A stretch of 64,000 bases of DNA, taken from NCBI GenBank assembly GCA_003250475.1, contig QKGI01000065.1, forward strand, positions 15,240 to 79,239, given 5' to 3'. The position numbers and the translations under genes were made by a program. Under the pieces are notes generated by a model, which saw only the letters and a program-made list of their open reading frames with translations, was not told where the DNA came from and ran no database searches. This document shows, piece by piece, positions 1,968 through 27,299 of this stretch (position 1 is its first letter; the number at the start of each line of letters is the position of its first letter). This DNA comes from Bacteroidota bacterium. GTDB taxonomy: Bacteria > Bacteroidota > Bacteroidia > Bacteroidales > VadinHA17.

Positions 1968-1982
1968 TGTCTTATGGTTTAT

Positions 1983-2116
1983 AGTCTGAAGGTAGAATTT
2001 CCCCGCCCTGCAGTCTGGCTCCTTCACTAAAATGATCCACAGGATCATTTCTTGACGCTCGGACCGGTCTGAAGGTCTGAAGTCTGAGGTCTGTTGTTTC
2101 GATGTGTCTTGCAGTC
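1983..2116. repeat. GTCT-family intergenic repeat element, copy 1 (69-bp core 2006..2074 flanked by GTCTGAAG-type and GTCTTGCAG units)
   Basis: Core 2006..2074 matches 35106..35174 at 68/69 positions. It contains the hairpin AAATGATCC-aca-GGATCATTT (2030..2050) and the palindrome GACCGGTC (2062..2069). Flanks are AGTCTGAAGGT (1983..1993), GGTCTGAAGGTCTGAAGTCTGAGGTCTG (2066..2093) and GTCTTGCAGTC (2106..2116). Confidence 0.85.
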
Positions 2117-7414: not shown

Positions 7415-8533
7415 TTACTTCAGTTTTGCAGCCTCTTTAATAATGGCGTAGTATGCCGGCTTTGGATTATAATCCCGGTCAAACAACAGCGGATAGTTGG
7501 TACGGCCCGGTATTGGCCAGTCATTCTTCCACGAGTAACCGTCATTTATCCCCCAGAATGTCACCCTAGAAACCTGGTCACTGTGCCTGAGCAGCAGCCT
7601 GAACAATTCGGCATACCTGTCAGCAAGCTGTAACCCAACAGAGTCAGGAAGCTCCTTTGCATAGGGATTAAGGGAATCGCGGTATTCGGCCGTCTTTGAT
7701 ATCTCGGCTCCATACAGCCAGGCCGGTGTGGGAAGCACATTGATCTCCATCTCGGTAATCATGACCTTCATTCCCAGGTTTGCATATTCGTTTATGCTTT
7801 CGTCCACGACAGTGAAATCCGGTGAGTCGAGATGCCAGTGCCCCTGTATGCCCACGCCGTCAATACGTATACCCTTCTCCTTCAGGTTGGTTACGATTGC
7901 TGTCACCCCGGCTCTCTTCAACGGCTCTTCGTTGTTGTAGTCGTTGTAATAGAGTTCTGCTTCCGGATCAGCTTCATGTGCATACCGGAATGCCATTTCT
8001 ATATAGTCGTCACCTATTATACTGAGCCATGGTGTCTGCCTCAGGCTGCCATCCTCGTCCACTGCCTCGTTAACCACATCCCATCCAAGGACCTTTCCCC
8101 TGTAGTGGCCGACCACCATCTGGATGTGGTCTTTCATTCTTTCCAGCAGGGCTTCACGTGTCAGCTGGTTTCCCAGGGAGTCGCGGAAGACCCAGTCGGG
8201 CGTCTGTGAATGCCATACCAGGACATGACCTATGACCGCCATCCCGCTGTTCTGAGCAAAATCCATGATACTGTCAGCCAGGTCAAAGTAGTATGTTCCC
8301 GGTTCAGGGTGTATCCTTTCCCACTTCATCGCGTTTTCTGCAGTGACAGCGTTGAAATGCTCCGTAATGAACGGCAGCGCCCCGGGGTCTGCTCCGGAGA
8401 GCTCGCGCCTGTCTATGGAGGTTCCGATAAGGAAGTGGCCGGCAAAGACATCTTTTAGTCCGGGCGCATCGCTGTCGCATGAAGTGAGGAGCGTAACCGA
8501 AATCAGTACTGCGGGCAGTATTTTGTTCTTCAT
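7415..8533 (-). CDS. GH10 endo-1,4-beta-xylanase, lipoprotein
   Basis: 372 aa. Lipobox LLTSC. GH10 catalytic blocks WDVVNEA (acid/base Glu) and ITEMEI (nucleophile Glu). Confidence 0.9.
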   Translation of the reverse strand: MKNKILPAVLISVTLLTSCDSDAPGLKDVFAGHFLIGTSIDRRELSGADPGALPFITEHFNAVTAENAMKWERIHPEPGTYYFDLADSIMDFAQNSGMAVIGHVLVWHSQTPDWVFRDSLGNQLTREALLERMKDHIQMVVGHYRGKVLGWDVVNEAVDEDGSLRQTPWLSIIGDDYIEMAFRYAHEADPEAELYYNDYNNEEPLKRAGVTAIVTNLKEKGIRIDGVGIQGHWHLDSPDFTVVDESINEYANLGMKVMITEMEINVLPTPAWLYGAEISKTAEYRDSLNPYAKELPDSVGLQLADRYAELFRLLLRHSDQVSRVTFWGINDGYSWKNDWPIPGRTNYPLLFDRDYNPKPAYYAIIKEAAKLK

Positions 8534-8552: not shown

Positions 8553-10010
8553 TTACCCTGCGTATTCCTTTCTCCGTTCTGTTAGCTCGTCCTGCATCTG
8601 GTATTCGACCTTTTTACCTATGCCGTAAATGAACAGTGCTATCACGCAGAGTACAAGTGCCACGACAGGGAATAAACTTACTGACAGCCTGATGCCCTGT
8701 ATTGCTGTTGGTGTCTGAACCACATTGGCAACATAGCCGTATGCATTCAGCAACCATCCTGCAAGTGCACCTCCTACAGCAAGTCCTACCTTCAGTCCTA
8801 CTACAATGGCTGCAAACACTATCCCCGTAGCACGGCGGTTGAACTTCCATTCGGAGTAGTCTGCCACGTCAGCCATCATAGCCCATGGCAGGGGCATGGT
8901 AACTCCCCAGGAGAAGTTAAACAGGATTGAAAGGATAAGTATAAGTGTTACCCCGGATGGCGGTGCCACAAAGAAGAGAGCTGCCATCAGGCCGGCCACA
9001 ATAAGCCATATTCTGAAGACGTCTCTTTTCCCGAACCTCTTGGCAAGGGCATTGCCAACGGCTATGCCGGGCAGCGCTGCCAGCTGACCCAGGATATTGA
9101 TCACGCTGAAGCTGTTGTCGGCATAGTTGGCACCGACAGATGTCAGGTTGAGCCCGCCGAGAAGTCCGAAGAGCACTTTGTCGGCGTTGACAAGGAAGGT
9201 TCTCATGCTCTCCGGGTCAAGATAATACTTGAAATAGTAGAGTAGCATGCTGTTCCGCATGGCAAGGAAGATGAACATAAAGAGAAATACAATGAACATC
9301 AGAACCCACTGCCTGTTGTGCAACAGGTCAGAGAGGTCCTGCCTCAGTGATGTTTTTTGCTGCGGAGGAGGGACAATCCGCTCTTTTGTCGTAAAAAATG
9401 TTATCAGGAAAAACAGTATTGCCAGAGAAGCAAAAATACCCATTGTGATCTGGTATCCCCGGGCGCTGCTGCCCTGTCCGAAGTGGTTAACCATAGGCAG
9501 GGTAAAGCCCATAATAGCTATTGTTGCAAGTGTCACAGCCACAAACCGGAAGGAAGAAAGGCTGGTACGCTCCTTCATCTTCCCTGTTATGACACCGCTC
9601 AGGGCTGCGTATGGATTGTTGTTTGCAGAATAGACAGTGAGCAGGAGCAGATAGGTAATGTAGGCATAGATCAGTTTGCCTGTTGATCCGAAGTCAGGGG
9701 TCCTGAATGCAAGGTATCCCAGCACCCCGAAAGGAATGGCCGTCCACAGTATCCATGGCCTGAACTTACCCCACCGTGTATTTGTCCGGTCAGCCAGAGC
9801 GCCGAAGACCGGGTCACACACAGCTCCCCATAACCGGGCCACAAGAAACAACGTAGCAGCTGCACCTGCCGTCAGGCCGAAGGTATCTGTATAAAAGCTG
9901 AGCTGAAGCAGCATCATTGTCTGAAAGATGAAGTTGGCTGCACCATCTCCGAGGCTGTAGCCGACCTTCTCTTTAACCGATAGTTTCCCTGTTTCCGGTT
10001 GCATCATCAT
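8553..10010 (-). CDS. Glycoside-pentoside-hexuronide (GPH):cation symporter, probable xylo-oligosaccharide importer
   Basis: 485 aa, about 12 hydrophobic segments. GPH-type N-terminus LSVKEKVGYSLGDGAANFIFQ. First gene of the minus-strand xylanolytic operon. Confidence 0.8.
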   Translation of the reverse strand: MMMQPETGKLSVKEKVGYSLGDGAANFIFQTMMLLQLSFYTDTFGLTAGAAATLFLVARLWGAVCDPVFGALADRTNTRWGKFRPWILWTAIPFGVLGYLAFRTPDFGSTGKLIYAYITYLLLLTVYSANNNPYAALSGVITGKMKERTSLSSFRFVAVTLATIAIMGFTLPMVNHFGQGSSARGYQITMGIFASLAILFFLITFFTTKERIVPPPQQKTSLRQDLSDLLHNRQWVLMFIVFLFMFIFLAMRNSMLLYYFKYYLDPESMRTFLVNADKVLFGLLGGLNLTSVGANYADNSFSVINILGQLAALPGIAVGNALAKRFGKRDVFRIWLIVAGLMAALFFVAPPSGVTLILILSILFNFSWGVTMPLPWAMMADVADYSEWKFNRRATGIVFAAIVVGLKVGLAVGGALAGWLLNAYGYVANVVQTPTAIQGIRLSVSLFPVVALVLCVIALFIYGIGKKVEYQMQDELTERRKEYAG

Positions 10011-10119
10011 TTAGTTATCAGGATTACATTATTTAATACCATAAATATTCTTCCCTGGACCTGGTATACATCATGGCCGGGTTTAAACTTAATTAAAAGT
10101 ATATAATCCGATTTAATTC

Positions 10120-10133
10120 TGCAACCGATTGCA
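10120..10133. promoter_or_regulatory. Candidate LacI-family operator TGCAACCGATTGCA
   Basis: Fits the generic LacI/CcpA-type operator pattern TGnAAnCGnTTnCA at every constrained position. It lies in the 179-bp divergent region between the transporter operon and the lacI-family gene. Confidence 0.45.
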
Positions 10134-10189
10134 AAAAATACTTCAAAAAATTTCAATAATACCGGTTTTCTTACTTATTTTGAAGAATT

Positions 10190-11233
10190 ATGACAGGAAT
10201 GAAGAAAAAATCGGAGGTCACCATTTATGACATCTCAAAGGTGCTGAACATCTCGGCATCTACCGTCTCGCGTGGACTCAACAATAGTCCGCAGGTAAGA
10301 AAAGACCTCCGGCGCAAGATAATGCAGACAGCCCAGGAGATGGGTTATCAGCACAATAAGTTTGCATCAAATCTAAGGCAGAAGAGGACAAGAACGCTCG
10401 GGGTGGTGATCCCCCGGATAGACAGTCACTTCATGTCAAGTGTGATATCAGGCATGGAGAAGATAGCCAATAACTCGGGTTATCAGCTGCTTATAAGCCA
10501 GAGCGAAGAGTCAGCCACACTGGAGGAGGCAAATATCCAGGCGTTGTTCAACAGCCGTGTTGACGGTATGCTCGTATCACTCTCTTTTGAGACAAAGAAC
10601 AGTGACGCCTTTAAGAATATTTTCCGCAGGGATATCCCTCTCGTGTTTTTCGACAGGGTCTTCGAATGCAACAACTGCGTAAATGTGGTTATTGATAATT
10701 ACAGGGCAGGATACGATGTCACCAAACACCTCATTGACCAGGGGTGCAGGAAGATTGTACATGTGGGGGGGAGCCTGAACCGTAATGTTTATAATGACCG
10801 GTACCGAGGATACAGGCAGGCGCTGGCAGACAACTCGATCCCGTTTGATGACAGGATGCTGATCTTAACCGATCTGGGAGACAGCTCAGGCGTGGCTATT
10901 ATAAACCAACTGCTGGGCGACGGCTCTATGCCTGACGGCATCTTCACGGCAAATGACAATACAGCTGTATCGATCATTTGTGAGCTGAAGAAAAAAGGTT
11001 ACCGGGTGCCCGATGATGTTGCAGTGGCCGGATTCAATGACGACCCTGTATCGCGCATTGTGGAGCCCAACCTTACAACAGTACACTATCCGGGCAGAGC
11101 TATGGGAGAGGTAGCTGCCTCAACAATTATCAGGATACTTGACGGTACTCAGTACGAGAGAGTGAACTCGATAATACTGACCTATGAGCTGATCATACGT
11201 GAATCATCACTCAGGTCAGTCAATACTGCCTGA
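10190..11233 (+). CDS. LacI-family transcriptional regulator
   Basis: 347 aa. N-terminal HTH TIYDISKVLNISASTVSRGLNN followed by a periplasmic-binding-protein-like sugar-binding fold. An alternative start is at 10199. Confidence 0.9.
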   Translation: MTGMKKKSEVTIYDISKVLNISASTVSRGLNNSPQVRKDLRRKIMQTAQEMGYQHNKFASNLRQKRTRTLGVVIPRIDSHFMSSVISGMEKIANNSGYQLLISQSEESATLEEANIQALFNSRVDGMLVSLSFETKNSDAFKNIFRRDIPLVFFDRVFECNNCVNVVIDNYRAGYDVTKHLIDQGCRKIVHVGGSLNRNVYNDRYRGYRQALADNSIPFDDRMLILTDLGDSSGVAIINQLLGDGSMPDGIFTANDNTAVSIICELKKKGYRVPDDVAVAGFNDDPVSRIVEPNLTTVHYPGRAMGEVAASTIIRILDGTQYERVNSIILTYELIIRESSLRSVNTA

Positions 11234-11235
11234 GG

Positions 11236-13392
11236 ATGAAAGCAAGGATTGTCACATTCCTGCTGATTATACTGCTTTCTCCTGTTATTCCGGCAAAAGG
11301 AGATGACGGGTACAGGCTCTGGCTCAGGTATGGCCGGATCACTGACAGGGCATATCTCAGGGAGTGCAGTAAAAGACTGGGAAGTGTGATGGTCAATGGC
11401 GGGTCTCCTGTCCTGGAGGCTGCGTATGATGAGCTTGTTACCGGATTGGAGGGTATGACCGGCATGGAAATAGATATGGTGCATACCCCTGGTGGTAACT
11501 GGACCGTGGCTGCCGGCACCCTGCAGTCGACACCCCTTCTGGCATCGCTTCTTCCTGATATCAGCCCGGGCTCTCTCGGTGAGGAGGGCTATGTAATCAG
11601 AACGGTTAAATCGGGCAGGAGGAGCCTGACTCTGATTGCTTCGGAAGGGGACAGGGGTGTGCTCTATGGTGTCTTCCACCTGCTGAGGCTTGTCAGTATG
11701 CAGGACCCGCTCCATGATCTGTCAATCCTCGAAAAGCCGGCAGTGACTCTCCGGCTCCTGAACCACTGGGATAATCTTGACGGCAGTGTTGAGAGGGGCT
11801 ATTCCGGATGTTCACTCTGGAACTGGCATCTGCTTCCGCATTACATATCACCCCGGTACAGGGACTATGCAAGAGCCAATGCTTCCATAGGTATTAACGG
11901 TACGGTACTTACCAACGTGAATGCAAATGCCCTTGTGCTGACTCCCCGGTACCTGGCCGGGGTAGCTGCCATAGCCGATGTAATGAGACCATACGGCATT
12001 AAGGTATACCTCACTGCACGATTCAGCGCCCCTTCAGAGATAGGCGGGCTTGCCACCTCCGATCCTCTCGATGCTGAAGTGATCAACTGGTGGAGAGACA
12101 AGGTCACCGAGATATATACCTTCATTCCTGATTTCGGAGGATTTCTTGTCAAGGCCAACTCGGAAGGGCAGCCTGGCCCGCAGGACTACGGGCGCACTCA
12201 CGCTGACGGGGCGAATATGCTTGCAGACGCTCTGGCTCCATACGGAGGAGTGGTAATGTGGCGGGCGTTTGTTTATGATAACAATGTGCCCGTTGACAGG
12301 GCCATGCAGGCCTATAATGAATTCCTGCCCTCTGACGGTTCTTTCAGGGACAATGTCATGTTACAGGTAAAAAACGGACCTGTTGATTTCCAGCCGCGTG
12401 AACCTTTTCACCCGCTCTTCGGTGCCATGAAGGATACGCCGATGATGATGGAGTTCCAGATTACCAAGGAGTATCTTGGCTGTGCCACACACCTTGTTTT
12501 CCTGGCGCCTCTCTTTGAGGAGGTGCTCAGAAGCGACACCTATGCCAGGGGGCCCGGGTCAGAGGTTTTCAGGGTGATTGACGGATCATTGTACGGCAAC
12601 AGGCTGACAGGGATAGCCGGTGTGGCCAACACCGGGTCAGACCGTAACTGGACAGGTCACCTCTTCGGGCAGGCCAACTGGTATGCGTTCGGACGTATGG
12701 CATGGCAGCCGGAGCTCTCCTCAGGGCAGGTCGCCACCGAATGGATAAGGATGACTCTGACACATGACAAGGAAACAGAGATGGGTATTAAAAAGATGAT
12801 GCTCAGCTCACGGGAAGCTGCTGTTAATTACATGACACCGCTGGGATTGCACCACATAATGGCAGAGGGTCATCACTGGGGGCCTGGCCCATGGGTAGAC
12901 CAGGGACGTCCGGACTGGACCTCAGTCTATTATCACAGGGCTGACACTGCCGGGATAGGCTTTGACCGTACCCGCGAAGGCAGTACCGGCGTAAGTCAGT
13001 ACTTCCACCCGCTCGACGGGATACTTAATGATCCTCATACATGCCCGGAAAACCTGCTTTTGTGGTTTCATCACCTGCCGTGGGATTACATAATGAGATC
13101 AGGCAACACTCTGTGGGATGAGCTATGCCTTAAGTACCAGGAAGGAGCAGACAGCGTAGAAGAGTATGCCTCTTTCTGGGAGACATTGCAGGGGGAAATT
13201 GATGATGAACAGTATGAACATGTAAGGCAGATGCTGGTAATACAGCATAATGAGGCCATATGGTGGAAGGATGCCTGCCTGCTGTACTTTCAGACCTACT
13301 CGCACAGGCCATTCCCTGAAGGGGTGCATCCTCCTGAACATGACCTGGATTATTACAGGGGACTTAAATTCTATTATGTTCCGGGCATATAG
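11236..13392 (+). CDS. aguA: GH67 alpha-glucuronidase
   Basis: 718 aa with a signal peptide. GH67-type N-terminus DDGYRLWLRY, plus NHWDNLDGSVERGYSG and KANSEGQPGPQDYGRTHADGANMLA blocks. It starts 2 nt after the lacI stop. Confidence 0.85.
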   Translation: MKARIVTFLLIILLSPVIPAKGDDGYRLWLRYGRITDRAYLRECSKRLGSVMVNGGSPVLEAAYDELVTGLEGMTGMEIDMVHTPGGNWTVAAGTLQSTPLLASLLPDISPGSLGEEGYVIRTVKSGRRSLTLIASEGDRGVLYGVFHLLRLVSMQDPLHDLSILEKPAVTLRLLNHWDNLDGSVERGYSGCSLWNWHLLPHYISPRYRDYARANASIGINGTVLTNVNANALVLTPRYLAGVAAIADVMRPYGIKVYLTARFSAPSEIGGLATSDPLDAEVINWWRDKVTEIYTFIPDFGGFLVKANSEGQPGPQDYGRTHADGANMLADALAPYGGVVMWRAFVYDNNVPVDRAMQAYNEFLPSDGSFRDNVMLQVKNGPVDFQPREPFHPLFGAMKDTPMMMEFQITKEYLGCATHLVFLAPLFEEVLRSDTYARGPGSEVFRVIDGSLYGNRLTGIAGVANTGSDRNWTGHLFGQANWYAFGRMAWQPELSSGQVATEWIRMTLTHDKETEMGIKKMMLSSREAAVNYMTPLGLHHIMAEGHHWGPGPWVDQGRPDWTSVYYHRADTAGIGFDRTREGSTGVSQYFHPLDGILNDPHTCPENLLLWFHHLPWDYIMRSGNTLWDELCLKYQEGADSVEEYASFWETLQGEIDDEQYEHVRQMLVIQHNEAIWWKDACLLYFQTYSHRPFPEGVHPPEHDLDYYRGLKFYYVPGI

Positions 13393-13421
13393 ATACATGA
13401 TCAAAACTCAACCTAGACCTT

Positions 13422-14459
13422 ATGAATGACAGACACTGGGAGGACCTATTAAAGGTCATAAAAGGCGAGAAGACGAAGGAGCAGCCCGTGGGTTTTATTA
13501 TTGACAGTCCATGGCTGCCGGGGTGGCATGGATCAACAATACTTGAATATTATACTGATCCGGTGACCTGGTTTGAAGCCAATGCCGGTGCCCAGGAAGC
13601 TTTTCCCGATGTGATGTTCCTGCCCGGTTACTGGGCAGAATACGGGATGTGCACTGAACCGTCAGCCTTTGGGACAAAACTGGTATGGGCAGAAAATGAC
13701 TTTCCCCATCCGGTAAAACTCCGGTGCACAACTGAGGCTGTCTCTTCACTGGAAAAGCCTGATGTAAAGACTGACGGACTCCTGCCTTTTGTCATCAGCA
13801 GGATGGAAAAATATGAGGAGAGACTGAAAAGGAACGGATGTAACTACCGGTTCGCTTCCAGCCGCGGCCCTCTGAACATAGCCTCCTTCCTCTTTGGCAC
13901 AACAGACTTCATGATGGCACTGGCCATAGCGCCTGATGAGGCCGCGAAGGCTCTCAGTGTGATTACGGATTTTGTCATAGACTGGCTTACTCTCCAGTAT
14001 GAAAAATTCCCGGAAATAAGAGGAGTATTCCTGCTCGATGATATTGTAGGCTTCCTTGGACAGCCTGACTTTGAGACCTTCGTGTTACCTCATTTAAAGA
14101 GAATATACAGCACCTTTGATCCTGAGGTCAGTTTTTTCCATAATGATGCTTCGGGACTGATAACAGCAAGTTACCTTGAAGAGATAGGTATCAATCTGTT
14201 CAATTTCAGTTTTAATCACTCCTTCGAAGAGATAAGAAAAATTGCAGGAGAGAGGGTCACCCTTGTTGGAAACCTGCCGCCGAGGGATGTTCTTGCACTG
14301 GGAACACCGGCCGCCGTGGAGGCGGGCGTAATAGCCATGATGCGCACGGTTAAAGACAACAAAAGGATAATATGGTCATGCGGCGGTGGTATGCCACCTG
14401 ATGCTTCTACGGAAAATATACGTACATTTATCTCGACAGTGAGAAGTTTCTATAAATAA
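13422..14459 (+). CDS. Uroporphyrinogen-decarboxylase (URO-D) superfamily protein; HemE versus MtaA/CmuA-like methyltransferase not resolved
   Basis: 345 aa, cytoplasmic. Overall URO-D/MtaA-like pattern (..RGPLNIASFLFG.., ..FFHNDASG.., ..IWSCGGGMPPD..). The His-x-Cys zinc motif of MtaA-type enzymes reads His-Asn-Asp here. Confidence 0.55.
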   Translation: MNDRHWEDLLKVIKGEKTKEQPVGFIIDSPWLPGWHGSTILEYYTDPVTWFEANAGAQEAFPDVMFLPGYWAEYGMCTEPSAFGTKLVWAENDFPHPVKLRCTTEAVSSLEKPDVKTDGLLPFVISRMEKYEERLKRNGCNYRFASSRGPLNIASFLFGTTDFMMALAIAPDEAAKALSVITDFVIDWLTLQYEKFPEIRGVFLLDDIVGFLGQPDFETFVLPHLKRIYSTFDPEVSFFHNDASGLITASYLEEIGINLFNFSFNHSFEEIRKIAGERVTLVGNLPPRDVLALGTPAAVEAGVIAMMRTVKDNKRIIWSCGGGMPPDASTENIRTFISTVRSFYK

Positions 14460-14467
14460 AAAAACGT

Positions 14468-15961
14468 ATGTTATTACTTGGTATTGACCTTGGCAGCTCA
14501 TCAGTGAAAGTCTCTGTCGTTGACGGAGAAACCGGCAGAACCATTTCCTTATCTTCATATCCGCCTTCCGAGATGGAGATTTCGGCGCCCATGCCCGGAT
14601 GGGCTGAGCAGGATCCGGAAGTGTGGTGGAAGAACTTCTCCCTGGCTCTCGGGGCCTGCCTGGAGCCTGTCGGGTCAAAGAGAAAGGATATAGGTGCCAT
14701 AGGCATATCCTACCAGATGCATGGTCTGGTCATGGTTGATAAGGAGCATGAGGTATTGCGTCCCTCGATAATCTGGTGCGACAGCAGGGCTGTAGAAACA
14801 GGACAGAGAGCCTTTGAGAAGATGGGAAAGGACTTTTGCCTTCATCACCTTCTTAATTCACCGGGAAACTTCACTGCATCAAAACTGGCATGGGTAAAAG
14901 AGAATGAGCCGGCCATATATGAGAGAATCTATAAGATAATGCTTCCGGGCGATTACCTGGCGATGAGGCTCACTGATGAGATAAGGACAACATACACGGG
15001 ATTATCTGAAGGGATTTTCTGGGACTTTATGAGGGGTGAAATATCGGAAGAGCTACTCGATTACTACGGTATTGACCCGGAGCTGCTTGCTGAACCGGTG
15101 AAGTCATTTGCCCTGCAGGGCAGGCTTACTGATAAAATGGCGGAAGAGCTGGGGCTTACGGCAGGAATCCCTGTCTCATACAGGGCAGGTGACCAGCCCA
15201 ACAATGCATTGTCACTCAATGTTCTGCAGCCGGGTGAGGTAGCTACCACAGCAGGCACCTCAGGGGTTATCTACGGTGTCACCGACAAGACACAGTTCGA
15301 TCCGATGTCACGTATTAACACCTTCCTTCATGTAAATCATACCGAGCGCATAACACGCCTGGGAGTACTGTTGTGTATCAATGGCACCGGTATCCTCAAT
15401 TCGTGGCTCAATAAAAATACCGGCGGAGGGCTGACATACAGCCGCATGAACGAGATGGCTGCCGGTGTTGAGCCGGGCAGTGACGGTCTCTTTATCCTTC
15501 CGTTCGGCAACGGTGCAGAAAGGATGTTTCAGAACAACAACATAGGTGCCTCTGTGCACCGGCTGAACTTCAATATTCACCGGCAGGCACATCTCTACCG
15601 GGCCGCCCAGGAGGCCATCGCTTACTCTTTCCGCTTTGGCCTTGAGATAATGAAGGAGACAGGTATAAACCCGACAGTTATCAGAGCCGGTGAGTCAAAC
15701 ATGTTCCTAAGCAAGGTATTCAGGGATATACTTTCAAGCCTTACCTCTACGGTGATAACACTGTACAATACAGACGGCTCCGTCGGCGCAGCACGCGGTG
15801 CCGGGATAGGCTGCGGATATTACAGGTCGGAGCAGGAAGCATTCAGGGGACTGGAGGTCACCGGGTCAAGTGAACCTGACAACGAGCTGTCAATGATATA
15901 CGATGCCAGGTACATGGAATGGCTTGAGCTTCTTGATGATCAGTTATATGAACAGAAATAA
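14468..15961 (+). CDS. xylB: Xylulokinase (FGGY family)
   Basis: 497 aa. [13 protein letters not shown]-terminal ATPase motif and GDQPNNALS. Immediately upstream of xylA. Confidence 0.9.
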
Positions 15962-15965
15962 TACT

Positions 15966-17288: not shown

Positions 17289-17294
17289 TCTTTC

Positions 17295-18722
17295 ATGGCT
17301 CTCTTCACCCCCCTGCGCCGCTGGCAGCCTGCCTTTCATCCGTTCGTAAGGTTATCAGCCGGCAGCAGGCTGCTTACGCTGGTTGAGCGGGTAATCAAGG
17401 GGCCGCTGTTCGGGTGCAGGATGTGTGGAAACTGCCTCCTGCAGGAGACTGCCTTCATATGTCATATGGAGTGCCCGAAAGGGATCAGGAACGGTCCGTG
17501 TGGTGGAGTACATGACGGCTACTGCTATGTGGATCCGAAAAGAAGATGTGCATGGCATCTTATAAATGAGCGGGCACGCAGGTTACACAGGGAACATAAG
17601 CTCCTGGAGGTGCTGCCGCCGGTGGACTGGGACAGGGCCGGGACAGAGACATGGGGGGAGGTCGTAAAAAAAGTCAGGGAGACAGGGCTTCGTAATATCA
17701 TGATGCCTTCAGCCAGAAAGGGAAAGAGTGCAGGAGATGTGCTTGAGGAGGAGGTGTTCAGACCTATCCGGCAGCCATTGTGGTGGAGCGGAGATTCGGA
17801 GTATCATGCACCGGCAGTGGCTGAGCCTCAGTCCCATCTTGAGAGGGAGCTGGGCAGCGGCAGGTTCGTCATCACGGTTGAGGTGACACCCCCGGTGAGC
17901 GCTGCCACTGGCAAACTTGAAGAGAAGATAAAGCTGTTGAAACCCTTTGTCTCAGGCATTAATTTTACCGATGGTTCCTCGGCGGTACCCAGGATGTCAA
18001 GCGCAGCCTGTTCGGCCGTTGCGGCGTCACTGGGGGCAGACCCGGTAATGCAGGTATCAGCCCGTGACAACAACCGCAATAGCCTGCAATCGCAGGCCGT
18101 AGGTGCCAATGCTATAGGAGTATATAACATACTCTGCCTCTCGGGCGACAGCCCGCGGGTAGGACCGAAGCCTCACAGCAGCATGAATATCCTGGATGTG
18201 GATTCTGTGCAGATGCTGTGGATCCTCCGTAGGATGAGGGATGAGGGCATTTATCTCGATGGCCGTGAGTTGAAAAACAGACCGCACCTGTTCCTTGGAG
18301 CTGCCACGGCACCCTTCGCCCAGGAGCCGTATATGCAGGCTTTGCGCATCAGGAAAAAGATCAACGCAGGAGCCCAGTTCATCCAGACAAACCTTGTCTT
18401 CGATCCTGACAGCCTCGACCCCTGGCTTGAACAGCTGGATAAAGAGGGGCTGCTTGATAAAGTGTTTATCCTGGCCGGGATCACTCCGCTGAGGTCAATG
18501 CGTCTTGCTCATTATCTTAATGATCATATTCCCGGGGTGACCATCCCCGAAGAGATAATGAAGAGGCTGTCACGTGCCGGCGATGGCTTTGCGGAAGAGA
18601 GCATTGCCCTTACTGTTGAGAATTTAAGAAGACTCAGAAAGAAACAGGGAATCAGCGGAGTTCATATAATGCCACTTGGCTGGGAGACAGTAGTACCATT
18701 GATTATTGAAAAGTCAGAATGA
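17295..18722 (+). CDS. MetV-MetF fusion: Cys-rich MTHFR_C-type domain fused to a methylenetetrahydrofolate reductase (MetF) barrel
   Basis: 475 aa. The N-terminal ~100 aa are CRMCGNCLLQETAFICHMECPKGIRNGPCGG..GYCYV..RRCAW. The C-terminal ~290 aa are MetF-like (FVITVEVTPP.., INFTDGSSA.., ILCLSGDSP.., AGAQFIQTNLVFD). Confidence 0.65.
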   Translation: MALFTPLRRWQPAFHPFVRLSAGSRLLTLVERVIKGPLFGCRMCGNCLLQETAFICHMECPKGIRNGPCGGVHDGYCYVDPKRRCAWHLINERARRLHREHKLLEVLPPVDWDRAGTETWGEVVKKVRETGLRNIMMPSARKGKSAGDVLEEEVFRPIRQPLWWSGDSEYHAPAVAEPQSHLERELGSGRFVITVEVTPPVSAATGKLEEKIKLLKPFVSGINFTDGSSAVPRMSSAACSAVAASLGADPVMQVSARDNNRNSLQSQAVGANAIGVYNILCLSGDSPRVGPKPHSSMNILDVDSVQMLWILRRMRDEGIYLDGRELKNRPHLFLGAATAPFAQEPYMQALRIRKKINAGAQFIQTNLVFDPDSLDPWLEQLDKEGLLDKVFILAGITPLRSMRLAHYLNDHIPGVTIPEEIMKRLSRAGDGFAEESIALTVENLRRLRKKQGISGVHIMPLGWETVVPLIIEKSE

Positions 18723-20515
18723 AACTTGTAACCTCAAGGGAGCTTGCCAAAGCTACAAATCTTGATACTCCGGGCGGAGTATTCATCGCTGAGGCCCTGA
18801 TGCAGATATTCCGCTATAACAAGCTGAACAAATTATACTCAAGCTCCTATGCCAGTGATCCTTCAATATTTATCAATTCCATCCTGAGGCACCTGGATAT
18901 TAAATATGAGGTACCGGATAAAGACCTTGAGAACATACCGCTGACCGGCTCTTTTATTACAGTTTCAAACCATCCTTTTGGCGGAATAGATGCCCTGATC
19001 CTGCATAAGATACTGGCGGCGCGTCGCCCTGATGTAAAAGTGATGGCTAACTTCCTGCTACAGAGGATTGAGCCTCTTAAAGACCTTATAATACCTGCGG
19101 ATCCTTCTGAGAACTACCACAACAGCAAACTGTTATATACGAGCATAAGGGAGACTCTGAGGTATGTGAAAGAGGGCCATCCTGTTGCCATTTTCCCGGC
19201 GGGTGAGGTATCGACATATCAGTCGGAATCGGGTCTCATAACAGACAGGGAGTGGCAGGAGATACTTCTCAGGGCAATAAGGATTGCAGAAGTACCGGTG
19301 ATACCTGTATATTTTCACGGTACAAACTCACGCTGGTTTCATATACTGGGTCGTATCCATCCTCTTCTGGGCATTGCCAGGCTCGGCTCGGAGATGATAA
19401 ACAAACGACATAATGTGATCAGGGTAAGGATAGGTAAGCCCGTGACCGTTAAGGAACAAGCTGACCTGGGAGATGTCGCCCGTTTCGGTCGCTACCTGAG
19501 AGCAAGAACCTATTCTCTGGGGTCAGCCCTGGAGGCAAGGCCCTTTTTCAGGAACTTCAGGAAGCGAAGGAGCCGCAGGCAGGAACCCGTGGAGAGCCCC
19601 GTAGACCGTAAAGTGCTGATGGAAGAGATCAGTACTGTAAGGCAGTCATATGAGCTTTTTACAAACAAGAATTACCTTGTGCTCTTCGCCCCGACACGCG
19701 TTATCCCCAATCTTATCAGGGAAATAGGAAGACTCCGGGAACTGACATTCAGGGAGGTGGGAGAAGGGACAAACAGGGCAACAGATCTTGATGAGTATGA
19801 CTTTTACTATCACCATCTGATTGTCTGGGACGATGATGCGGGAGCTGTTGTCGGAGCCTACAGGCTCGGGAAAGGGAAAGAGATACTCAGCCAGTATGGC
19901 ATAAAGGGTTTCTATATCCATTCGCTTTTCAGGATCCGCAGGTCATTTGAGCCTGTCCTCAGTGAGTCGCTTGAGCTTGGCAGATCATTCATCGTGAAGG
20001 AGTACCAGCGAAAGGCGATGCCTCTCTTCCTCCTGTGGAAAGGATTGCTGTCGGTCCTTGTCATGCATGCCGAGTACAGGTATCTTATCGGTCCTGTAAG
20101 CATAAGCAACGAATTCTCATCCCTGTCCAAATCGCTGATTGTCGACTTCATCAGGAACAACTGCTATGACTCCTCAATGGCCCGGTTCATAAAACCCAGG
20201 AAAAAGCTCAACCTGCAGGTAGACAAACGTATTGACCGTGATATTATCATAGCTTCGGCGGAGAAGGATATCAGCAAGGTTGAGAAAGTGGTCAGTGATG
20301 TGGATTCCGGGTTCAGAATACCTGTACTGCTTAAAAAGTACCTTGAGATCAATGCTAAAATAATTGGTTTTAATGTGGACCCTGACTTCAATAATTGCCT
20401 TGACGGTCTTATAATGCTTGATGTGTACGAGATCCCTGCAGATTTTGTAAATGCACTTTCACGTGACCAGAATGAGGAAAAGGTAAAGAAGAGATTCGCC
20501 GGCCAGAACAAATGA
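18719..20515 (+). CDS. olsF: Bifunctional O-acyltransferase/N-acyltransferase (OlsF-like aminolipid synthase)
   Basis: 598 aa. N-terminal PlsC-like acyltransferase (VSNHPFGGIDAL, FPAGEVS). C-terminal OlsB/GNAT-like domain (FREVGEGTNRATDLDEYDFYYHHLIVWDDDAGAVVGAYRLG). ATGA overlap with the upstream gene. Confidence 0.65.
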   Translation: MKLVTSRELAKATNLDTPGGVFIAEALMQIFRYNKLNKLYSSSYASDPSIFINSILRHLDIKYEVPDKDLENIPLTGSFITVSNHPFGGIDALILHKILAARRPDVKVMANFLLQRIEPLKDLIIPADPSENYHNSKLLYTSIRETLRYVKEGHPVAIFPAGEVSTYQSESGLITDREWQEILLRAIRIAEVPVIPVYFHGTNSRWFHILGRIHPLLGIARLGSEMINKRHNVIRVRIGKPVTVKEQADLGDVARFGRYLRARTYSLGSALEARPFFRNFRKRRSRRQEPVESPVDRKVLMEEISTVRQSYELFTNKNYLVLFAPTRVIPNLIREIGRLRELTFREVGEGTNRATDLDEYDFYYHHLIVWDDDAGAVVGAYRLGKGKEILSQYGIKGFYIHSLFRIRRSFEPVLSESLELGRSFIVKEYQRKAMPLFLLWKGLLSVLVMHAEYRYLIGPVSISNEFSSLSKSLIVDFIRNNCYDSSMARFIKPRKKLNLQVDKRIDRDIIIASAEKDISKVEKVVSDVDSGFRIPVLLKKYLEINAKIIGFNVDPDFNNCLDGLIMLDVYEIPADFVNALSRDQNEEKVKKRFAGQNK

Positions 20516-20567
20516 GATACATCTCAGCATAAGAGAGACAGCAGCTTCCGTACGGGCTGAAACAGAA

Positions 20568-20592
20568 AGAGGCAGGTTTTAAACCTGCCTCT
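20568..20592. terminator. Hairpin between convergent olsF-like and ppiD genes
   Basis: AGAGGCAGGTT-tta-AACCTGCCTCT, an 11-bp perfect stem. A T-rich tract (TTTCTGTTTC) follows on the minus strand, so it best fits ppiD termination. Confidence 0.6.
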
Positions 20593-20620
20593 GCCGTTAT
20601 CGTAATAAAGATATATTCTC

Positions 20621-22929: not shown

Positions 22930-24549
22930 ATGTCCAGGAATCTGAGAGGGCTCTCTGCCCGCAGAGGCCTCAGTGAGGGTCTTTATGAAGATATTGTGGG
23001 AGCCGGTGGGTCCACTCAGCCTGCGGGGCTGAAAAATGTTGCCGGTAAGTTTATGACAGGTGGGGCTGCCGTCATGAGCGCAGGTTCGTTTTATGATTTC
23101 CTTAACCCCGTTCATCAGGGGAAAAAGGTTTACGTCTGTGACGGCACTGCCTGTCTCACATCAGGGAAACAGGGTGATGTCAGGAGTGCGCTTCTAAAGA
23201 GTTTTTCTGAGGATGAGATAGGCACAATGACCTGTCTGGGCCATTGCCACTCAAATGATGCCTTCATGGTCAACGGTGAGGTTCGCCTGTATGAAACCGG
23301 AAATGATCCGCAGGAGCTTAAACCCCGGACAAACGCCGACCGGCCGGCACTTATTGCACCGCAGGGTGAGATCGGTGATTACTATTCCCTTGCCGGGAGA
23401 TGGGTTTCCGATCTCTCCGCCGCCCTTGGGGAGCTTGAGTTGTCAGGGCTGAGGGGCCGTGGCGGAGCAGGCTTCCCGTTCCATATAAAGGTCAGGTCGG
23501 CACGCGATGCCGGATCAGGGCAGAAATATATAGTATGCAACGGTGATGAGGGTGATCCGGGGGCATTCTCCGACAAATGGCTGCTTGAGGAACGTCCTCA
23601 TTCAGTGCTCTTCGGAATGCTTATGACAGGTCTTATCATTGGGGCTGACACCGGGGTTATATATGTCAGGGGAGAATACCCGCTGGCGGTGAAGAGGATG
23701 AGAGAAGCGGTAAGTGCGCTTGAAGAGGCAGGCATCACCGGGGCGACTGATGACAATGCCGGGTACCGTTTCCGCTTTCATGTGGTGGAGGGATCAGGAG
23801 CCTATATATGTGGTGAGGAGACCTCTCTTCTCAACTCTATCGAGGGGTTGAGGCCGGAGGTTCGCACCCGTCCGCCCTTCCCTGCGGTGTATGGACTCTT
23901 CGGGATGCCCACCGTACTGAGTAATGTGGAGACGTTTGCCAACATTCACAATATACTTGAAGCGGGTGGAACCCACTGGGCTTCACTCGGCACCGACAGG
24001 TCGCCAGGCACCAAGCTGGTATCACTTGACGGTGCCTTTAACAGGCCGGGATTACTTGAGGTCAGGATGGGGACGCCCCTGAGCGTTGTCATCAATGAAA
24101 TGGGGGGAGGAACACGTTATCCCGTCAAGGCATTTCAGATCGGCGGACCGCTGGGAGGACTGGTACCTGCATCGAAGGTCGATGATCTTACACTCGACTT
24201 TGAATCATTTGCCGGCGGGGGTTTCCTGCTGGGGCATGCCGGGATAGTGTCCGTGCCGGATGACTTCCCGGTGATCAGGCTCCTGGAACACCTGTTTGAA
24301 TTCACCATGAAGGAGTCGTGCGGGAAATGTTTCCCCTGCCGCCTTGGCTCGGTACGAGGTTATGAGTTGCTGTCACATGCATCAGAAAAGGGAGAGAAGA
24401 TCAGCCGGCGACTATTTGACGATCTCCTGGAGACGATGCAACTGGGATCGCTGTGTGCCCTGGGAGGGGGATTGCCATTGCCGGTAAAAAATGCATTACG
24501 ATATTTCAGCGATGAGATGGATGGTTTCTTCAGGAAAGGAGAGGAGTAG
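22930..24549 (+). CDS. NAD(H)-binding diaphorase subunit (fused NuoE-like 2Fe-2S + NuoF-like FMN/4Fe-4S), formate dehydrogenase beta-type
   Basis: 539 aa. NuoE-type cysteines CDGTAC..CLGHC, then GRGGAGFP, YIVCNGDEGDPGAFSD (FMN/NADH site) and ESCGKCFPCRLG (4Fe-4S). Confidence 0.8.
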   Translation: MSRNLRGLSARRGLSEGLYEDIVGAGGSTQPAGLKNVAGKFMTGGAAVMSAGSFYDFLNPVHQGKKVYVCDGTACLTSGKQGDVRSALLKSFSEDEIGTMTCLGHCHSNDAFMVNGEVRLYETGNDPQELKPRTNADRPALIAPQGEIGDYYSLAGRWVSDLSAALGELELSGLRGRGGAGFPFHIKVRSARDAGSGQKYIVCNGDEGDPGAFSDKWLLEERPHSVLFGMLMTGLIIGADTGVIYVRGEYPLAVKRMREAVSALEEAGITGATDDNAGYRFRFHVVEGSGAYICGEETSLLNSIEGLRPEVRTRPPFPAVYGLFGMPTVLSNVETFANIHNILEAGGTHWASLGTDRSPGTKLVSLDGAFNRPGLLEVRMGTPLSVVINEMGGGTRYPVKAFQIGGPLGGLVPASKVDDLTLDFESFAGGGFLLGHAGIVSVPDDFPVIRLLEHLFEFTMKESCGKCFPCRLGSVRGYELLSHASEKGEKISRRLFDDLLETMQLGSLCALGGGLPLPVKNALRYFSDEMDGFFRKGEE

Positions 24550-24551
24550 TC

Positions 24552-27299
24552 ATGGAAAAAACAGCATATATAGACAACAAACCCTTCCCGGTAATTGCCG
24601 GAGAGACGATACTTGAATTTGTTCGCCGCAATATAGGCCGGGAGGTGATACCTACACTATGCCAGGCAGACAATCTTGAAAACTACGGATCATGCCGTAT
24701 CTGTTCCGTGGAGGTGGCCCTGAAACAGGATGGTCCGGCAAAGGTTATGGCATCATGTCACACGCCGGTTGCACCGGGGTATCACATTTATCCTTCAACA
24801 GAAAGGATCAGGAGACTCAGGAGTAATATCCTTGAGCTCGTTCTCTCCGAATATCCGCCGGAGAAAATAGCGCCGGCGCCAGGCATGATAGCAACCGAGT
24901 TCCAGAGGATTGTGGCTGAGAACGGTGTCGGTGAAGTGAGGTACGGACACAGGATTGCAGGGTATGAGGAAGACAGAAGTCACCCGTATGTGTGGTCTGA
25001 CCTCAATGAGTGCATAAAATGTTACAGGTGTGTAAGGGCATGCGATGAACTGCAGGCCGAGCATGTGCTCGGCATCAGCGGGCGGGGACATAACAGCACT
25101 ATAATCAAGGGACTTGATCAGTCCTTTCGTGATTCTCCCTGCGTGTCGTGCGGAGCCTGTGTCCAGACCTGCCCGACAAATGCATTGACAGACAGGTATT
25201 CTACAAAGACCCTGGATGCAGACAGGATAATAAGAACCACATGTACCTACTGTGGTGTGGGTTGTAACCTCGAAGTCAAGGTAATTGATGGAAGAGTGCG
25301 TGGGATTCAGGCACCTGTTGACGGGGAAACAAACAGGGGGCATACATGCCTCAAAGGCAGGTTTGCTTTCGAATTTTACAATCACCCTGAGAGACTAACC
25401 TCACCCCTGATGAGGAAGAACGGGGTTCTCACCGAGGTCTCATGGGATGAAGCATACGACTATACAGCGGCCAGGTTCAGGGAGATAAAGGAGAAATACG
25501 GTCCTGATGCTCTTGCAGGTATCTCGTCTGCACGATGTACCAACGAGGAGAACTACCTGATGCAGAAGTTCTTCCGGATTGTTATCGGAACCAACAACAT
25601 CGATGGTTGTGCAAGGGTGTGCCATGCCCCCACTGCCATGGGTATGCAGTGGGCTTACGGTACCGGGGCAGCCACAAACTCAATTGACGATCTTTACAGG
25701 ACAGGATGCATACTTATAATAGGAGCCAATCCGTCAGCCGCCCATCCTGTTACGGGAGCCCGGATCAGGTCAGTGGTTGAATCAGGCAAACCCCTGATAG
25801 TCATTGACCCGTTGAAGATAGATCTTGCCAGGCTGGCAAAATATCATCTCCAGATCAATCCCGGCACAAATGTAGCAGTGCTGAACCTTTTCGCATACTT
25901 TCTTCTTTTAGAAGGACTTATCGATGAGGATTTTATCAGTAACCGGACGGAGGGATGGGAGGATTTCAGGCGCTACCTCATGTCACTTGATATTGATGAG
26001 CTTGAGAGGGTATGCGGTGTCTCCCGTGAGCTTGTGAGAGCTGCTGCCATAGAATACGGCACGGCTCATGCAGCCATGGAGTTTCATGGTCTGGGTGTGA
26101 CGGAACACTGGCAGGCAACAAAGGCTATCACGCTCATCTCCAACATTGCCATGATGACAGGCAATATTGGCAAAGAGGGGTGTGGTGTCAACCCGCTGCG
26201 CGGCCAGAATAATGTGCAGGGAGCTGCAGACATGGGAATACAGCCTCATCAGGGGGCAGGGTACCTTGACGTAACCAACCCGGCAAATATTGAGATCTAT
26301 AACTCATTCTACGGTACCCAGCACCCGACAAAGCCAGGTTACAGGATACCTGAGATGTTCTCTGCAGCCGGCAGGGGAGACCTGAAAGCCCTGTGGATCA
26401 TGGGTGAAGATATCCTGCAGACGGATCCTAACACCTGTCACGTACGGAGCTCGTTACAGGGACTTGATTTCCTCGTTGTGCAGGAGCTCTTTATGACCGA
26501 GACAGCCAGGATTGCCGATGTTATCTTCCCGGCCTCCTCTTTCTTTGAGAAGGAGGGTACATTCACCAACGGGGAGCGAAGGATACAGAGGGTTCAGAGG
26601 GTAGTGGAGCCCATGGAGGGTACCAGGCCTGACGGTCAGATTGTTGTCGACATGATGAACCGTATGGGATACAGCCAGCCGGGCTACACGGCAGATATAA
26701 TACTGAAGGAAATAGCCGGGATAGTCCCCTTCTTTAAAGGTGTAAAGTGGGATGAGCTGGGGAATAACGGCAAACAGTGGCCTGTCACGGAAGATGGTGA
26801 AGGAACGAAGATACTACACACAGAAACATTCAAGCGCGGTAAGGGAAAGTTCCATTCATGGGACTATGATATTTCGCCGGAGCTTAATGAACATAGCGGG
26901 CGCTTTCCTTATATACTAACCACAGGAAGGCTTCTGGAGCATTACAACAGCGGCACTATGACGCGGCGTACGCCTAACAGGGAGCTTGTTACGGAAGATG
27001 TCCTGTTTGTCCACCCCCATGATGCGGAGATAAAGGGAGTGGTCAGCGGGGATTATGCCAGGATATTCTCAGCAAGGGGGATAACCACCATGAAGGTACA
27101 GGTAACAGATGTTGTCAGGCCCGGAGTGATATATACCACATTTCATTTCCCGGATGCTGCCATTAATTTCCTCACCAGCGGTATCGGGGATGAGTTTACC
27201 CTGACTCCTGAATATAAGATTGTAGCTGTTGATTTTGAGAAATCCCATTATGGCATCTTCAAACGTGCTGAATGCCGTTCAGATCTGAAAAATGCATAA
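24552..27299 (+). CDS. Molybdopterin formate dehydrogenase alpha subunit (FdsA/FdhA-type), cysteine variant
   Basis: 915 aa. N-terminal 2Fe-2S (CQADNLENYGSCRICSVEV), two ferredoxin-type clusters (CIKCYRCVRAC, CVSCGACVQTC) and the MopB cluster (CTYCGVGCNLEV). The active-site block GCARVCHAPT has Cys where selenoproteins have Sec. Confidence 0.85.
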   Translation: MEKTAYIDNKPFPVIAGETILEFVRRNIGREVIPTLCQADNLENYGSCRICSVEVALKQDGPAKVMASCHTPVAPGYHIYPSTERIRRLRSNILELVLSEYPPEKIAPAPGMIATEFQRIVAENGVGEVRYGHRIAGYEEDRSHPYVWSDLNECIKCYRCVRACDELQAEHVLGISGRGHNSTIIKGLDQSFRDSPCVSCGACVQTCPTNALTDRYSTKTLDADRIIRTTCTYCGVGCNLEVKVIDGRVRGIQAPVDGETNRGHTCLKGRFAFEFYNHPERLTSPLMRKNGVLTEVSWDEAYDYTAARFREIKEKYGPDALAGISSARCTNEENYLMQKFFRIVIGTNNIDGCARVCHAPTAMGMQWAYGTGAATNSIDDLYRTGCILIIGANPSAAHPVTGARIRSVVESGKPLIVIDPLKIDLARLAKYHLQINPGTNVAVLNLFAYFLLLEGLIDEDFISNRTEGWEDFRRYLMSLDIDELERVCGVSRELVRAAAIEYGTAHAAMEFHGLGVTEHWQATKAITLISNIAMMTGNIGKEGCGVNPLRGQNNVQGAADMGIQPHQGAGYLDVTNPANIEIYNSFYGTQHPTKPGYRIPEMFSAAGRGDLKALWIMGEDILQTDPNTCHVRSSLQGLDFLVVQELFMTETARIADVIFPASSFFEKEGTFTNGERRIQRVQRVVEPMEGTRPDGQIVVDMMNRMGYSQPGYTADIILKEIAGIVPFFKGVKWDELGNNGKQWPVTEDGEGTKILHTETFKRGKGKFHSWDYDISPELNEHSGRFPYILTTGRLLEHYNSGTMTRRTPNRELVTEDVLFVHPHDAEIKGVVSGDYARIFSARGITTMKVQVTDVVRPGVIYTTFHFPDAAINFLTSGIGDEFTLTPEYKIVAVDFEKSHYGIFKRAECRSDLKNA

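Follow-up and report, generated by a model that had tools for sequence, protein, structure and literature searches.

A single-chain MetV-MetF protein in a Bacteroidales glucuronoxylan locus: a candidate oxidase of methyl groups released by a putative corrinoid-dependent demethylase

We examined a stretch of 64,000 nucleotides (hereafter the window; positions 15,240 to 79,239 of contig QKGI01000065.1, assembly GCA_003250475.1) from a member of the VadinHA17 lineage of the Bacteroidales. Inside an operon for glucuronoxylan and xylose utilisation it carries metVF, a gene coding for a fusion of the cysteine-rich protein MetV with the methylenetetrahydrofolate reductase (MTHFR) MetF. The gene content of the locus and the neighbourhoods of related fusions point to a link between MetVF and a corrinoid/tetrahydrofolate (THF) methyltransferase system encoded in the same xylan locus, which may act on the methyl group of 4-O-methyl-glucuronate.

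Gene content of the xylan locus

Two divergent gene groups make up the part of the locus that lies in the window (Table 1). On the plus strand, the regulator gene is followed by the genes for a family 67 glycoside hydrolase (GH67), a URO-D-like protein placed directly after it, xylB, xylA, metVF and olsF. The neighbours named in the preliminary description (GH67, the URO-D-like gene, XylB and XylA upstream, and a formate dehydrogenase at 22930-27299) were all identified with Pfam and NCBIfam profiles, and the tight spacing that it reported was read in the sequence: six bases separate the TGA stop of xylA, ending at 17288, from the ATG of metVF, whose stop overlaps the start of olsF as ATGA. 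Given the 439 amino acids (aa) of xylA products in relatives, the true start of xylA is probably near 15969. The olsF gene is found 3' of metVF in only 10 of 18 loci of the same clade (clade A, see below); it is probably co-transcribed without contributing to the pathway. A scan of positions 9900-20800 for sigma-70 promoters and terminators returned counts at chance level, with a consensus that does not fit Bacteroidota; the only strong hairpin in this region stands after olsF. Signal-peptide-like N-termini are present in the glycosidases, GH67 included, and absent from the URO-D-like protein, MetVF and the three corrinoid-system proteins described next.

The xylan locus runs beyond the left end of the window, whose position 1 corresponds to C84:15240, into the upstream stretch of the same contig (labelled L022). 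The gene order there is SusC, SusD, two TIG-domain surface proteins, GH10, a corrinoid protein (CP), a pterin-binding methyltransferase (MT2) and a MetH-type reactivation protein (MetHact), the CP gene starting one base after that of GH10. CP, MT2, MetHact and the other genes of the module are single-copy and located on C84. The genome (3.47 Mb in 168 contigs, 97.8% complete) gave no match to PF14574, the profile of the usual ATP-dependent corrinoid activase RACo, in whose place the Met_synt_B12-like protein is predicted to stand. Searches of the same genome returned no MtaB homologue, no stand-alone homocysteine methyltransferase and no acetyl-CoA synthase. A 108-aa open reading frame (ORF) between the activator and esterase genes (L022:15134-15460, window 1-221) has no Pfam or NCBIfam match, carries low-complexity SCSLAV-type repeats and is probably repeat DNA; a short match resembling it is also present in L137, a locus described below.

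Table 1. Features of the xylan locus and of the MetVF protein; positions refer to the window unless preceded by L022
Feature	Position	Strand	Basis
MetV-MetF fusion protein, 475 aa, predicted accessory MetFV-type methylene-THF reductase	17295..18722	+	PF12225 + PF02219
MetV-type Cys-rich domain, aa 28-113	17376..17633	+	PF12225 (DUF5981, 'MTHFR C-terminal')
Eight invariant Cys, aa 41-85, inside the MetV-type domain	17415-17549	+	Homologue alignments
MTHFR TIM-barrel domain, aa 183-474	17841..18716	+	PF02219
Corrinoid protein (CP)	L022:12796-13461		PF02607 (B12-binding_2) + PF02310 (B12-binding); motif DLHDIG = DxHxxG
Pterin-binding methyl-THF:corrinoid methyltransferase (MT2)	L022:13555-14424		PF00809; NF005719 259.5 bits, cut-off 259
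Met_synt_B12-like activator (MetHact)	L022:14484-15113		Resembles MetH reactivation domain
URO-D-like protein, candidate donor-side corrinoid methyltransferase (MT1)	13422..14459	+	PF01208, E 1.1e-34
LacI-type operator TGCAACCGATTGCA, divergent promoter region	10120..10133	.	Sole pattern match in the window
LacI-family regulator of the locus	10190..11233	+	Pfam LacI + Peripla_BP
GH67 alpha-glucuronidase, frees (4-O-methyl)glucuronate	11236..13392	+	Pfam GH67 N, M and C domains
xylB, xylulokinase	14468..15961	+	FGGY_N, FGGY_C; best NCBIfam match XylB
xylA, xylose isomerase, listed ORF of 461 aa	15903..17288	+	TIGR02630 629 bits, cut-off 533
OlsF-like aminolipid synthase	18719..20515	+	NCBIfam OlsF 401 bits, below cut-off 620
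NAD-type formate dehydrogenase (NuoE/F-like subunit + FdhA)	22930..27299	+	NCBIfam Fdh-alpha 750 bits, cut-off 666
SASA-type carbohydrate esterase	24..2048	-	PF03629; orthologues near the module in other genomes
GH115 alpha-glucuronidase	2125..5124	-	PF15979, PF17829
GH3, probable beta-xylosidase	5121..7394	-	Pfam GH3 N + C domains plus Fn3-like
GH10 xylanase	7415..8533	-	PF00331
GPH/MFS_2 sugar:cation symporter	8553..10010	-	Pfam MFS_2; NCBIfam GPH family

Architecture and structure of MetVF

The fusion claimed in the preliminary description was borne out by the two domains found in one ORF. PF12225 matched with an E value of 1.8e-26 (92 bits against a cut-off of 23) and PF02219 with 5.7e-29 (102 bits against a cut-off of 24). 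The cysteine strings noticed earlier in the N-terminal part (of the CRMCGNC, GYCYV and RRCAW type) are present. Eight cysteines (C41, C44, C47, C56, C60, C69, C77 and C85) show no variation in alignments of 16 and 43 homologues with 55-80% identity. Likewise invariant in these alignments are Glu196, Asp285 and Asn366 of the barrel. Glu196 sits in an invariant 'E-V-T-P-P' and Asp285, in 'SGD', is aligned to the 'RGD' of Thermus MTHFR; these two residues may correspond to Glu28 and Asp120 of E. coli MTHFR, which serve in acid/base catalysis and folate binding.

An AlphaFold model built from the 43-sequence alignment had a mean confidence (pLDDT) of 78.8, most of the barrel being above 85. Foldseek matched this model to the MTHFRs of Thermus, E. 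coli, yeast and human, with target TM-scores of about 0.8 and E values of about 1e-13. The confidence falls below 50 at residues 34-59, so that the geometry of the Cys-rich stretch is unreliable in the model; low values are no surprise over the MetV-type domain, a presumed metal site that was modelled in the absence of the metal. No solved structure of MetV was found by sequence search or Foldseek, the sequence search giving distant MTHFR barrels only.

A second methylenetetrahydrofolate reductase

Two MTHFR genes are present in the genome. On TIGR00676, the equivalog of canonical MetF (cut-off 293.7), MetVF reaches 51.6 bits and the product of the other gene, a metF of 320 aa on contig C19, 289.9 bits. 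The C19 gene lies directly 3' of a full-length metH (1206 aa, 1841 bits against a cut-off of 1497) and adjoins metK, in the order metH-metF-metK. The genome thus has another, canonical metF, placed between metH and metK.

Operator sites and predicted co-regulation

The exact 14-mer TGCAACCGATTGCA occurs twice in the genome, at window position 10120 and at C84:3486, the latter copy in reverse orientation about 310 bp upstream of susC. The first copy precedes the operon that ends in xylA-metVF, and the second precedes the SusC, SusD, GH10 and corrinoid genes. The degenerate LacI-type pattern TGNAANCGNTTNCA (the sites are also denoted TGCAAYCGRTTGCA) has only three matches in the 3.47 Mb. The third of them is TGCAACCGCTTTCA, at C136:15590.

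When the pattern was searched in 80 related loci, 22 of 24 matches fell in promoter regions of the CP gene, of LacI/MFS or of SusC. Seven loci of clade B (see below) have the same operator 106-142 nt upstream of a CP-MT2-MetVF-MetHact operon, and two loci (L083 and L105) have a second site at LacI or GH115. It is therefore predicted from these sites that metVF and the corrinoid genes are co-regulated with xylan use.

Distribution and gene neighbourhoods of the fusion

A scan of species-representative genomes returned at least 597 relatives of the fusion. The best 80 of them come from metagenome-assembled genomes (MAGs) of Bacteroidales/Bacteroidia and Chloroflexota, are 55-78% identical to MetVF over the full length, and all keep MetV and MetF in a single chain. 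Neighbouring genes were labelled in 92 loci by phmmer, with proteins of established Pfam identity as queries. MT2 and MetVF genes are separated by a median of 34 nt and by at most 150 nt in 47 of 64 loci. No locus among the 92 combines RACo with the MetH-type activator; one or neither is present. Of 61 Bacteroidota loci, 26 have xylA or xylB within 10 kb of the fusion and 13 have GH67 or GH115.

Sampling of 300 genomes from the order showed the full-length fusion to be a patchy accessory gene, carried by only 11 of them. Orthologues of MT2 are present in 10 of these 11 genomes and in one of the 289 others, and those of the URO-D-like protein in 8 of 11 against 19 of 289, counts in which related genomes are not independent. 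At the genus level, co-occurrence with the URO-D gene is seen in four of the seven fusion-carrying genera of the sample, or five of eight when the genus of the window is included.

The tree of fusion proteins has four clades. Clade A, to which the window belongs, has the order XylB-XylA-MetVF with a junction of 6-7 nt in 17 of 18 loci, most of which also carry GH67 and the URO-D gene. Clade B has CP-MT2-MetVF-MetHact, often followed by XylB-XylA or by GH3, CE15 (carbohydrate esterase family 15), GH115 or GH67. Synteny of the fusion with xylAB and GH67 is thus kept in relatives, and the xylan link is seen on two different branches of the tree, each with its own gene order.

The two remaining clades carry RACo. 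Clade C comprises a sulfatase, RACo, CP, AraC, a formate channel, formyl-THF synthetase, MT2 and MetVF. This sulfatase-to-MetVF cluster was observed in L008, L025, L053, L056, L075, L101 and L112, often followed by GH3, and in L008 by proteins without a Pfam match. A possible function is the oxidation of methyl groups from a sulfated glycan that is also methylated; an MT1 was not recognised among its genes. The fourth clade, from Chloroflexota, has RACo, MT2 and MetVF (L051-L113; MAGs of Anaerolineae, Ardenticatenia and Thermoflexales), with fusions 55-60% identical to those of Bacteroidales. A transfer between phyla is suggested because the Chloroflexota fusions form one clade nested among Bacteroidota branches.

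These data bear on the possibility that MetVF is the ordinary MetF of the organism, standing after xylA by chance, which the preliminary description had put on an equal footing. The unrelated olsF in the same operon is in keeping with a fortuitous placement, as is a relative (G021, locus L030) that has the fusion amid housekeeping genes without its partners. This explanation is nevertheless contradicted by the canonical metF beside metH and metK, the patchy occurrence of the fusion, the conserved xylA junction, the near-strict co-occurrence with MT2 and the one operator common to the locus, and we consider it hardly credible.

The URO-D-like candidate methyltransferase

The URO-D-like protein scores far below the cut-offs of the hemE and MtaA equivalogs, and its best NCBIfam matches, which are weak, are methyltransferases of the MtaA/CmuA type. 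A separate URO-D-family gene on C139 is probably hemE. Orthologues of the URO-D-like protein with 50-53% identity are present in all five clade-B genomes checked.

In genomes without the fusion, too, this gene is placed beside genes for the use of xylan or uronates. L127 and L128 have SusD, GH115, CE15, SASA, LacI and URO-D, and L137 has GH115, MFS, GH10, GH43, URO-D, UxuA and SASA. In L132 and L135, URO-D is divergent from a homocysteine methyltransferase gene (SmethylT), CP and MetHact. URO-D has to be the donor side in these two loci because the only other methyltransferase there is the homocysteine methyltransferase. Moreover, homocysteine-acceptor systems occur without MetVF and THF-directed MT2 systems with it, which ties MetVF to the pool of methyl-THF produced or consumed by MT2.

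CE15 glucuronoyl esterases act on 4-O-methyl-glucuronate esters. A gene of this family adjoins the corrinoid module in L095 (14555-15946) and the URO-D gene in L127 (4687-6060). The clade-B genomes G301-G305 (L120-L124) have a conserved set of genes for PCMT, a metallo-beta-lactamase, GcvP, URO-D and a GFO/Oxidoreduct_C oxidoreductase, with DUF6807 too in L122. Pairs of a GFO-type oxidoreductase and DUF6807 also flank the CP-MT2-MetVF-MetHact operon in clade B. We considered whether GFO/IDH/MocA oxidoreductases and DUF6807 proteins prepare the sugar for the loss of its methyl group, and rejected this for the locus of the window, the genome having no close homologue of them.

Proposed pathway and alternative readings

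In the pathway that we propose, GH67 and GH115 would free 4-O-methyl-glucuronate, which would be imported. The cytoplasmic URO-D-like protein, acting as MT1, would transfer the methyl group to the Co(I) form of the corrinoid protein, and MT2 would pass it on to THF. MetVF, presumably a flavin and iron-sulfur enzyme, would then oxidise methyl-THF to methylene-THF, the electrons leaving through the Cys-rich domain to an acceptor, and FolD with formyl-THF synthetase would convert the carbon into formate with formation of ATP. The formate could be oxidised to CO2 by the nearby formate dehydrogenase; alternatively, the one-carbon (C1) unit may enter biosynthesis or be used by MetH. The MetH-type reactivation protein would take the part usually played by RACo, and the demethylated glucuronate would enter catabolism through UxaC. 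FolD, formyl-THF synthetase and UxaC are encoded in the genome on C68, C90 and C127, respectively. An acetogenic fate of the methyl group is unlikely because acetyl-CoA synthase was not found.

The formate dehydrogenase of the window is a possible sink for the C1 unit, its synteny with the module being restricted to close relatives. In L005 (15552-18303), L006 and L007 (15731-20099), loci of close relatives, the downstream formate dehydrogenase genes are split into at least two ORFs or interrupted, which may reflect assembly errors or decay. In other clades, genes for the exit of C1 units flank MT2-MetVF, namely formyl-THF synthetase, a formate channel, and FdhD with parts of a formate dehydrogenase. 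An independent locus, L029, brings together FdhD, NuoE/F-like genes, two formyl-THF synthetase genes, MT2 and MetVF.

That MetVF is the redox partner of the corrinoid/THF methyltransferase encoded in the locus appears highly probable from these data. To the full mechanism, in which the methyl group of 4-O-methyl-glucuronate passes through B12 to THF and MetVF oxidises the resulting methyl-THF, we assign a probability of about 0.55. The preliminary description had already suggested that MetVF, together with the URO-D-like protein, could oxidise methyl groups from 4-O-methyl sugars. That suggestion has gained CP, MT2 and MetHact in the same locus, the common operator and the recurring xylan synteny, while the direction of oxidation is still inferred, as are the donor of the methyl group, the cofactors and the acceptor of the electrons.

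Several observations weigh against the proposed mechanism. The presence of the unrelated olsF in the operon of metVF reminds us that operon membership alone proves little. The URO-D orthologue of clade B lies outside the xylan locus, beside gcvP and a GFO-type oxidoreductase, and the 19 genomes mentioned above have a URO-D orthologue without the fusion. MT1 enzymes are known to act on aryl methyl ethers, methanol, methyl halides and methylamines, and we know of no precedent for the corrinoid-dependent cleavage of an alkyl (sugar) methyl ether. With NAD+ or ferredoxin, methyl-THF is oxidised only against the energetic gradient. Nor is oxidation an intrinsic property of the family, as P0122, the nearest outlier with 51% identity, is MetVF fused to a whole MetH. 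Two genomes, G185 (L024) and G298 (L023), are without a full-length MetH and without a canonical MetF and carry URO-D and SmethylT-CP-MetHact together with MT2-MetVF. Finally, a genuine MtaB belongs to the module of the relative G270 and points to methanol, which has to be taken seriously as an alternative donor.

The last of these observations is central to the possibility that the chain and the role of MetVF are as proposed, with a donor other than 4-O-methyl-glucuronate. This donor could be methanol, derived from esters (methyl or glucuronoyl) or set free when the 4-O-methyl group is lost by beta-elimination, or an aryl methyl ether, for instance ferulate or lignin fragments accompanying xylan. 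In L138 (9105-13867) of G270, a GH115-GH3-GH10-MFS-LacI xylan locus, the URO-D orthologue is divergent from SmethylT, CP, a full-length MtaB (PF12176, 515 bits) and a MetH-type activator, MtaB thus standing between CP and the activator; this arrangement suggests that methanol is captured there for methionine synthesis. CE15 glucuronoyl esterases and SASA or GDSL esterases near the module would fit such a donor, and aryl methyl ethers or methyl halides are the substrates of the characterised URO-D-like MT1 enzymes cited here (PMC8630106; PMC13222342). However, the genome of the window lacks an MtaB homologue, no feruloyl esterase or arabinofuranosidase was seen among the genes of this locus, and the position of URO-D, directly after GH67 here and by GH115, CE15 or UxuA elsewhere, points to the uronic acid. 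We therefore regard a different donor as unlikely.

Another explanation is that MetVF works in the reductive direction and feeds methyl-THF to MT2 and CP for a second, split methionine-synthase-like or methylating system, with URO-D as an MtaA-like acceptor side and the placement in a xylan locus without catabolic meaning. P0122 speaks in its favour: its 1681 aa comprise MetV, MTHFR, S-methyl_trans, Pterin_bind, B12-binding_2, B12-binding and Met_synt_B12, and it could be a real mega-fusion or an artefact of gene calling. In G185 and G298, SmethylT-CP-MetHact with MT2-MetVF is probably the methionine synthase, which may also accept methyl groups from a catabolic donor; the module of G185 lies near SASA, GDSL esterases and UxuA. 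The MetH-type domain of the activator, the resemblance of URO-D to MtaA/CmuA-type enzymes, which methylate a thiol, and the existence of bidirectional corrinoid/THF methyltransferases such as MtgD (PMC12478193) are also compatible with reduction. On the other hand, the genome of the window already has metH-metF-metK and has no stand-alone homocysteine methyltransferase. In this genome, as in at least seven relatives, the xylan operator is predicted to control the module, which recurs by GH67, GH115, CE15 and xylAB in two gene orders. The neighbouring genes for formyl-THF synthetase, formate channel and formate dehydrogenase fit an outflow of C1 units, and URO-D must be the donor side in L132 and L135. 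A reductive role of MetVF at this locus thus seems improbable to us, and oxidation of methyl-THF derived from 4-O-methyl-glucuronate remains the reading that we prefer.

Comparison with known systems

In methylotrophic acetogens, the MetFV enzyme also works in the oxidative direction. In acetogens MetF is joined by MetV, an iron-sulfur (FeS) protein, and in some cases by RnfC2 or HdrABC-MvhD as well. Heteromeric MTHFRs that contain FeS clusters are classed as type 3 (PMC11868366). MetVF shares with them the MTHFR barrel, PF12225 and the tie to methyl-THF:corrinoid methyltransferases, and judged by this architecture it is a predicted fused variant of the type 3 enzymes. It differs in that the two parts form one polypeptide instead of separate subunits, in its non-acetogenic Bacteroidales host, and in the location of the gene in a polysaccharide utilisation locus with no adjacent Hdr, Mvh or RnfC2 gene.

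A parallel of another kind is the type 4 enzyme S6MTHFR of Sphingobium lignivorans SYK-6, encoded in a ligM-metF-ligH operon, which oxidises methyl-THF made by a demethylase into C1 metabolism and is defined by three NADH-excluding motifs (Leu-Pro in loop beta2-alpha3, Arg in helix alpha8 and Pro-Phe in loop beta8-alpha11; PMC11868366). In both cases a second MTHFR is genetically coupled to a system that produces methyl-THF, here a corrinoid system instead of LigM. In contrast to MetVF with its MetV domain, S6MTHFR is a single-domain protein of an aerobic host, in which LigM uses THF directly without B12. By analogy, MetVF would resemble S6MTHFR in its role, yet the type 3 enzymes in its architecture. 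Together with the O-demethylases of acetogens (PMC8630106; PMC13222342), the Sphingobium operon offers a precedent for the proposed concept.

MT1 enzymes have a UroD fold (PMC13222342). The set of proteins encoded in the locus resembles three- or four-component corrinoid O-demethylases and related systems, namely MtvABC, Odm and MtoABCD (PMC8630106) and CdmBCA (PMC13222342), in its UroD-fold MT1, a CP of about 220 aa with DxHxxG, a pterin-binding MT2 and a reactivating protein. It differs from them in the presumed substrate, a carbohydrate methyl ether instead of an aryl methyl ether or a methyl halide, in a MetH-type activator in place of RACo, in its distribution over two operons of one xylan locus, and in the inclusion of an MTHFR. 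On its gene content the system would thus be a variant of these O-demethylases.

In Ruegeria pomeroyi, one corrinoid protein and a bidirectional THF methyltransferase of the MtgBCD system serve both glycine-betaine demethylation and methionine synthesis (PMC12478193). The mixed picture of demethylation and methionine synthesis seen here (SmethylT in L023, L024 and L138; the MetH fusion P0122) recalls this system, which differs in its MttB-type donor side MtgB, its quaternary amine substrate, its aerobic host and the absence of MetVF. The 'mlp' gene cluster (PMC10418091) proved to be unrelated, as did the contents of a cockroach preprint and of a paper on Marinifilaceae.

Full-text searches of the literature returned nothing on the loss of the methyl group of 4-O-methyl-glucuronate through a corrinoid system, on MetVF in polysaccharide loci of Bacteroidota, or on how anaerobes handle the 4-O-methyl ether of glucuronoxylan. 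In marine Bacteroidota, a cytochrome P450 encoded in a polysaccharide utilisation locus reportedly demethylates 6-O-methyl-D-galactose as an oxygen-dependent mono-oxygenase, with formaldehyde as product. The removal of a sugar methyl ether by genes of such a locus would be common to both, whereas the pathway proposed here would work without oxygen and pass the methyl group to folate.

Biological significance

Glucuronoxylan ranks among the most abundant polymers of terrestrial environments, and a 4-O-methyl group is found on the majority of its glucuronate side chains. We tentatively suggest, at somewhat less than even odds, that the system described here is the first oxygen-independent, B12-dependent demethylase pathway for a carbohydrate methyl ether, that of 4-O-methyl-glucuronate, with MetVF as the dedicated methyl-THF oxidase that leads to formate, ATP or biosynthetic C1 units. 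It would be widespread in uncultured anaerobic Bacteroidales, with related forms in Chloroflexota.

If this reading is true, the URO-D-like MT1, the corrinoid protein, MT2, the MetH-type activator and MetVF would constitute a testable set of enzymes. MetVF would be a natural single-chain MetFV enzyme, helpful for finding the electron partner of the MetFV-type reductases. The degradation of fibre would be linked to vitamin B12 and to folate-dependent C1 metabolism, so that the use of methylated xylan would depend on B12, and in anoxic sediments and guts the pathway would supply formate or methyl groups.

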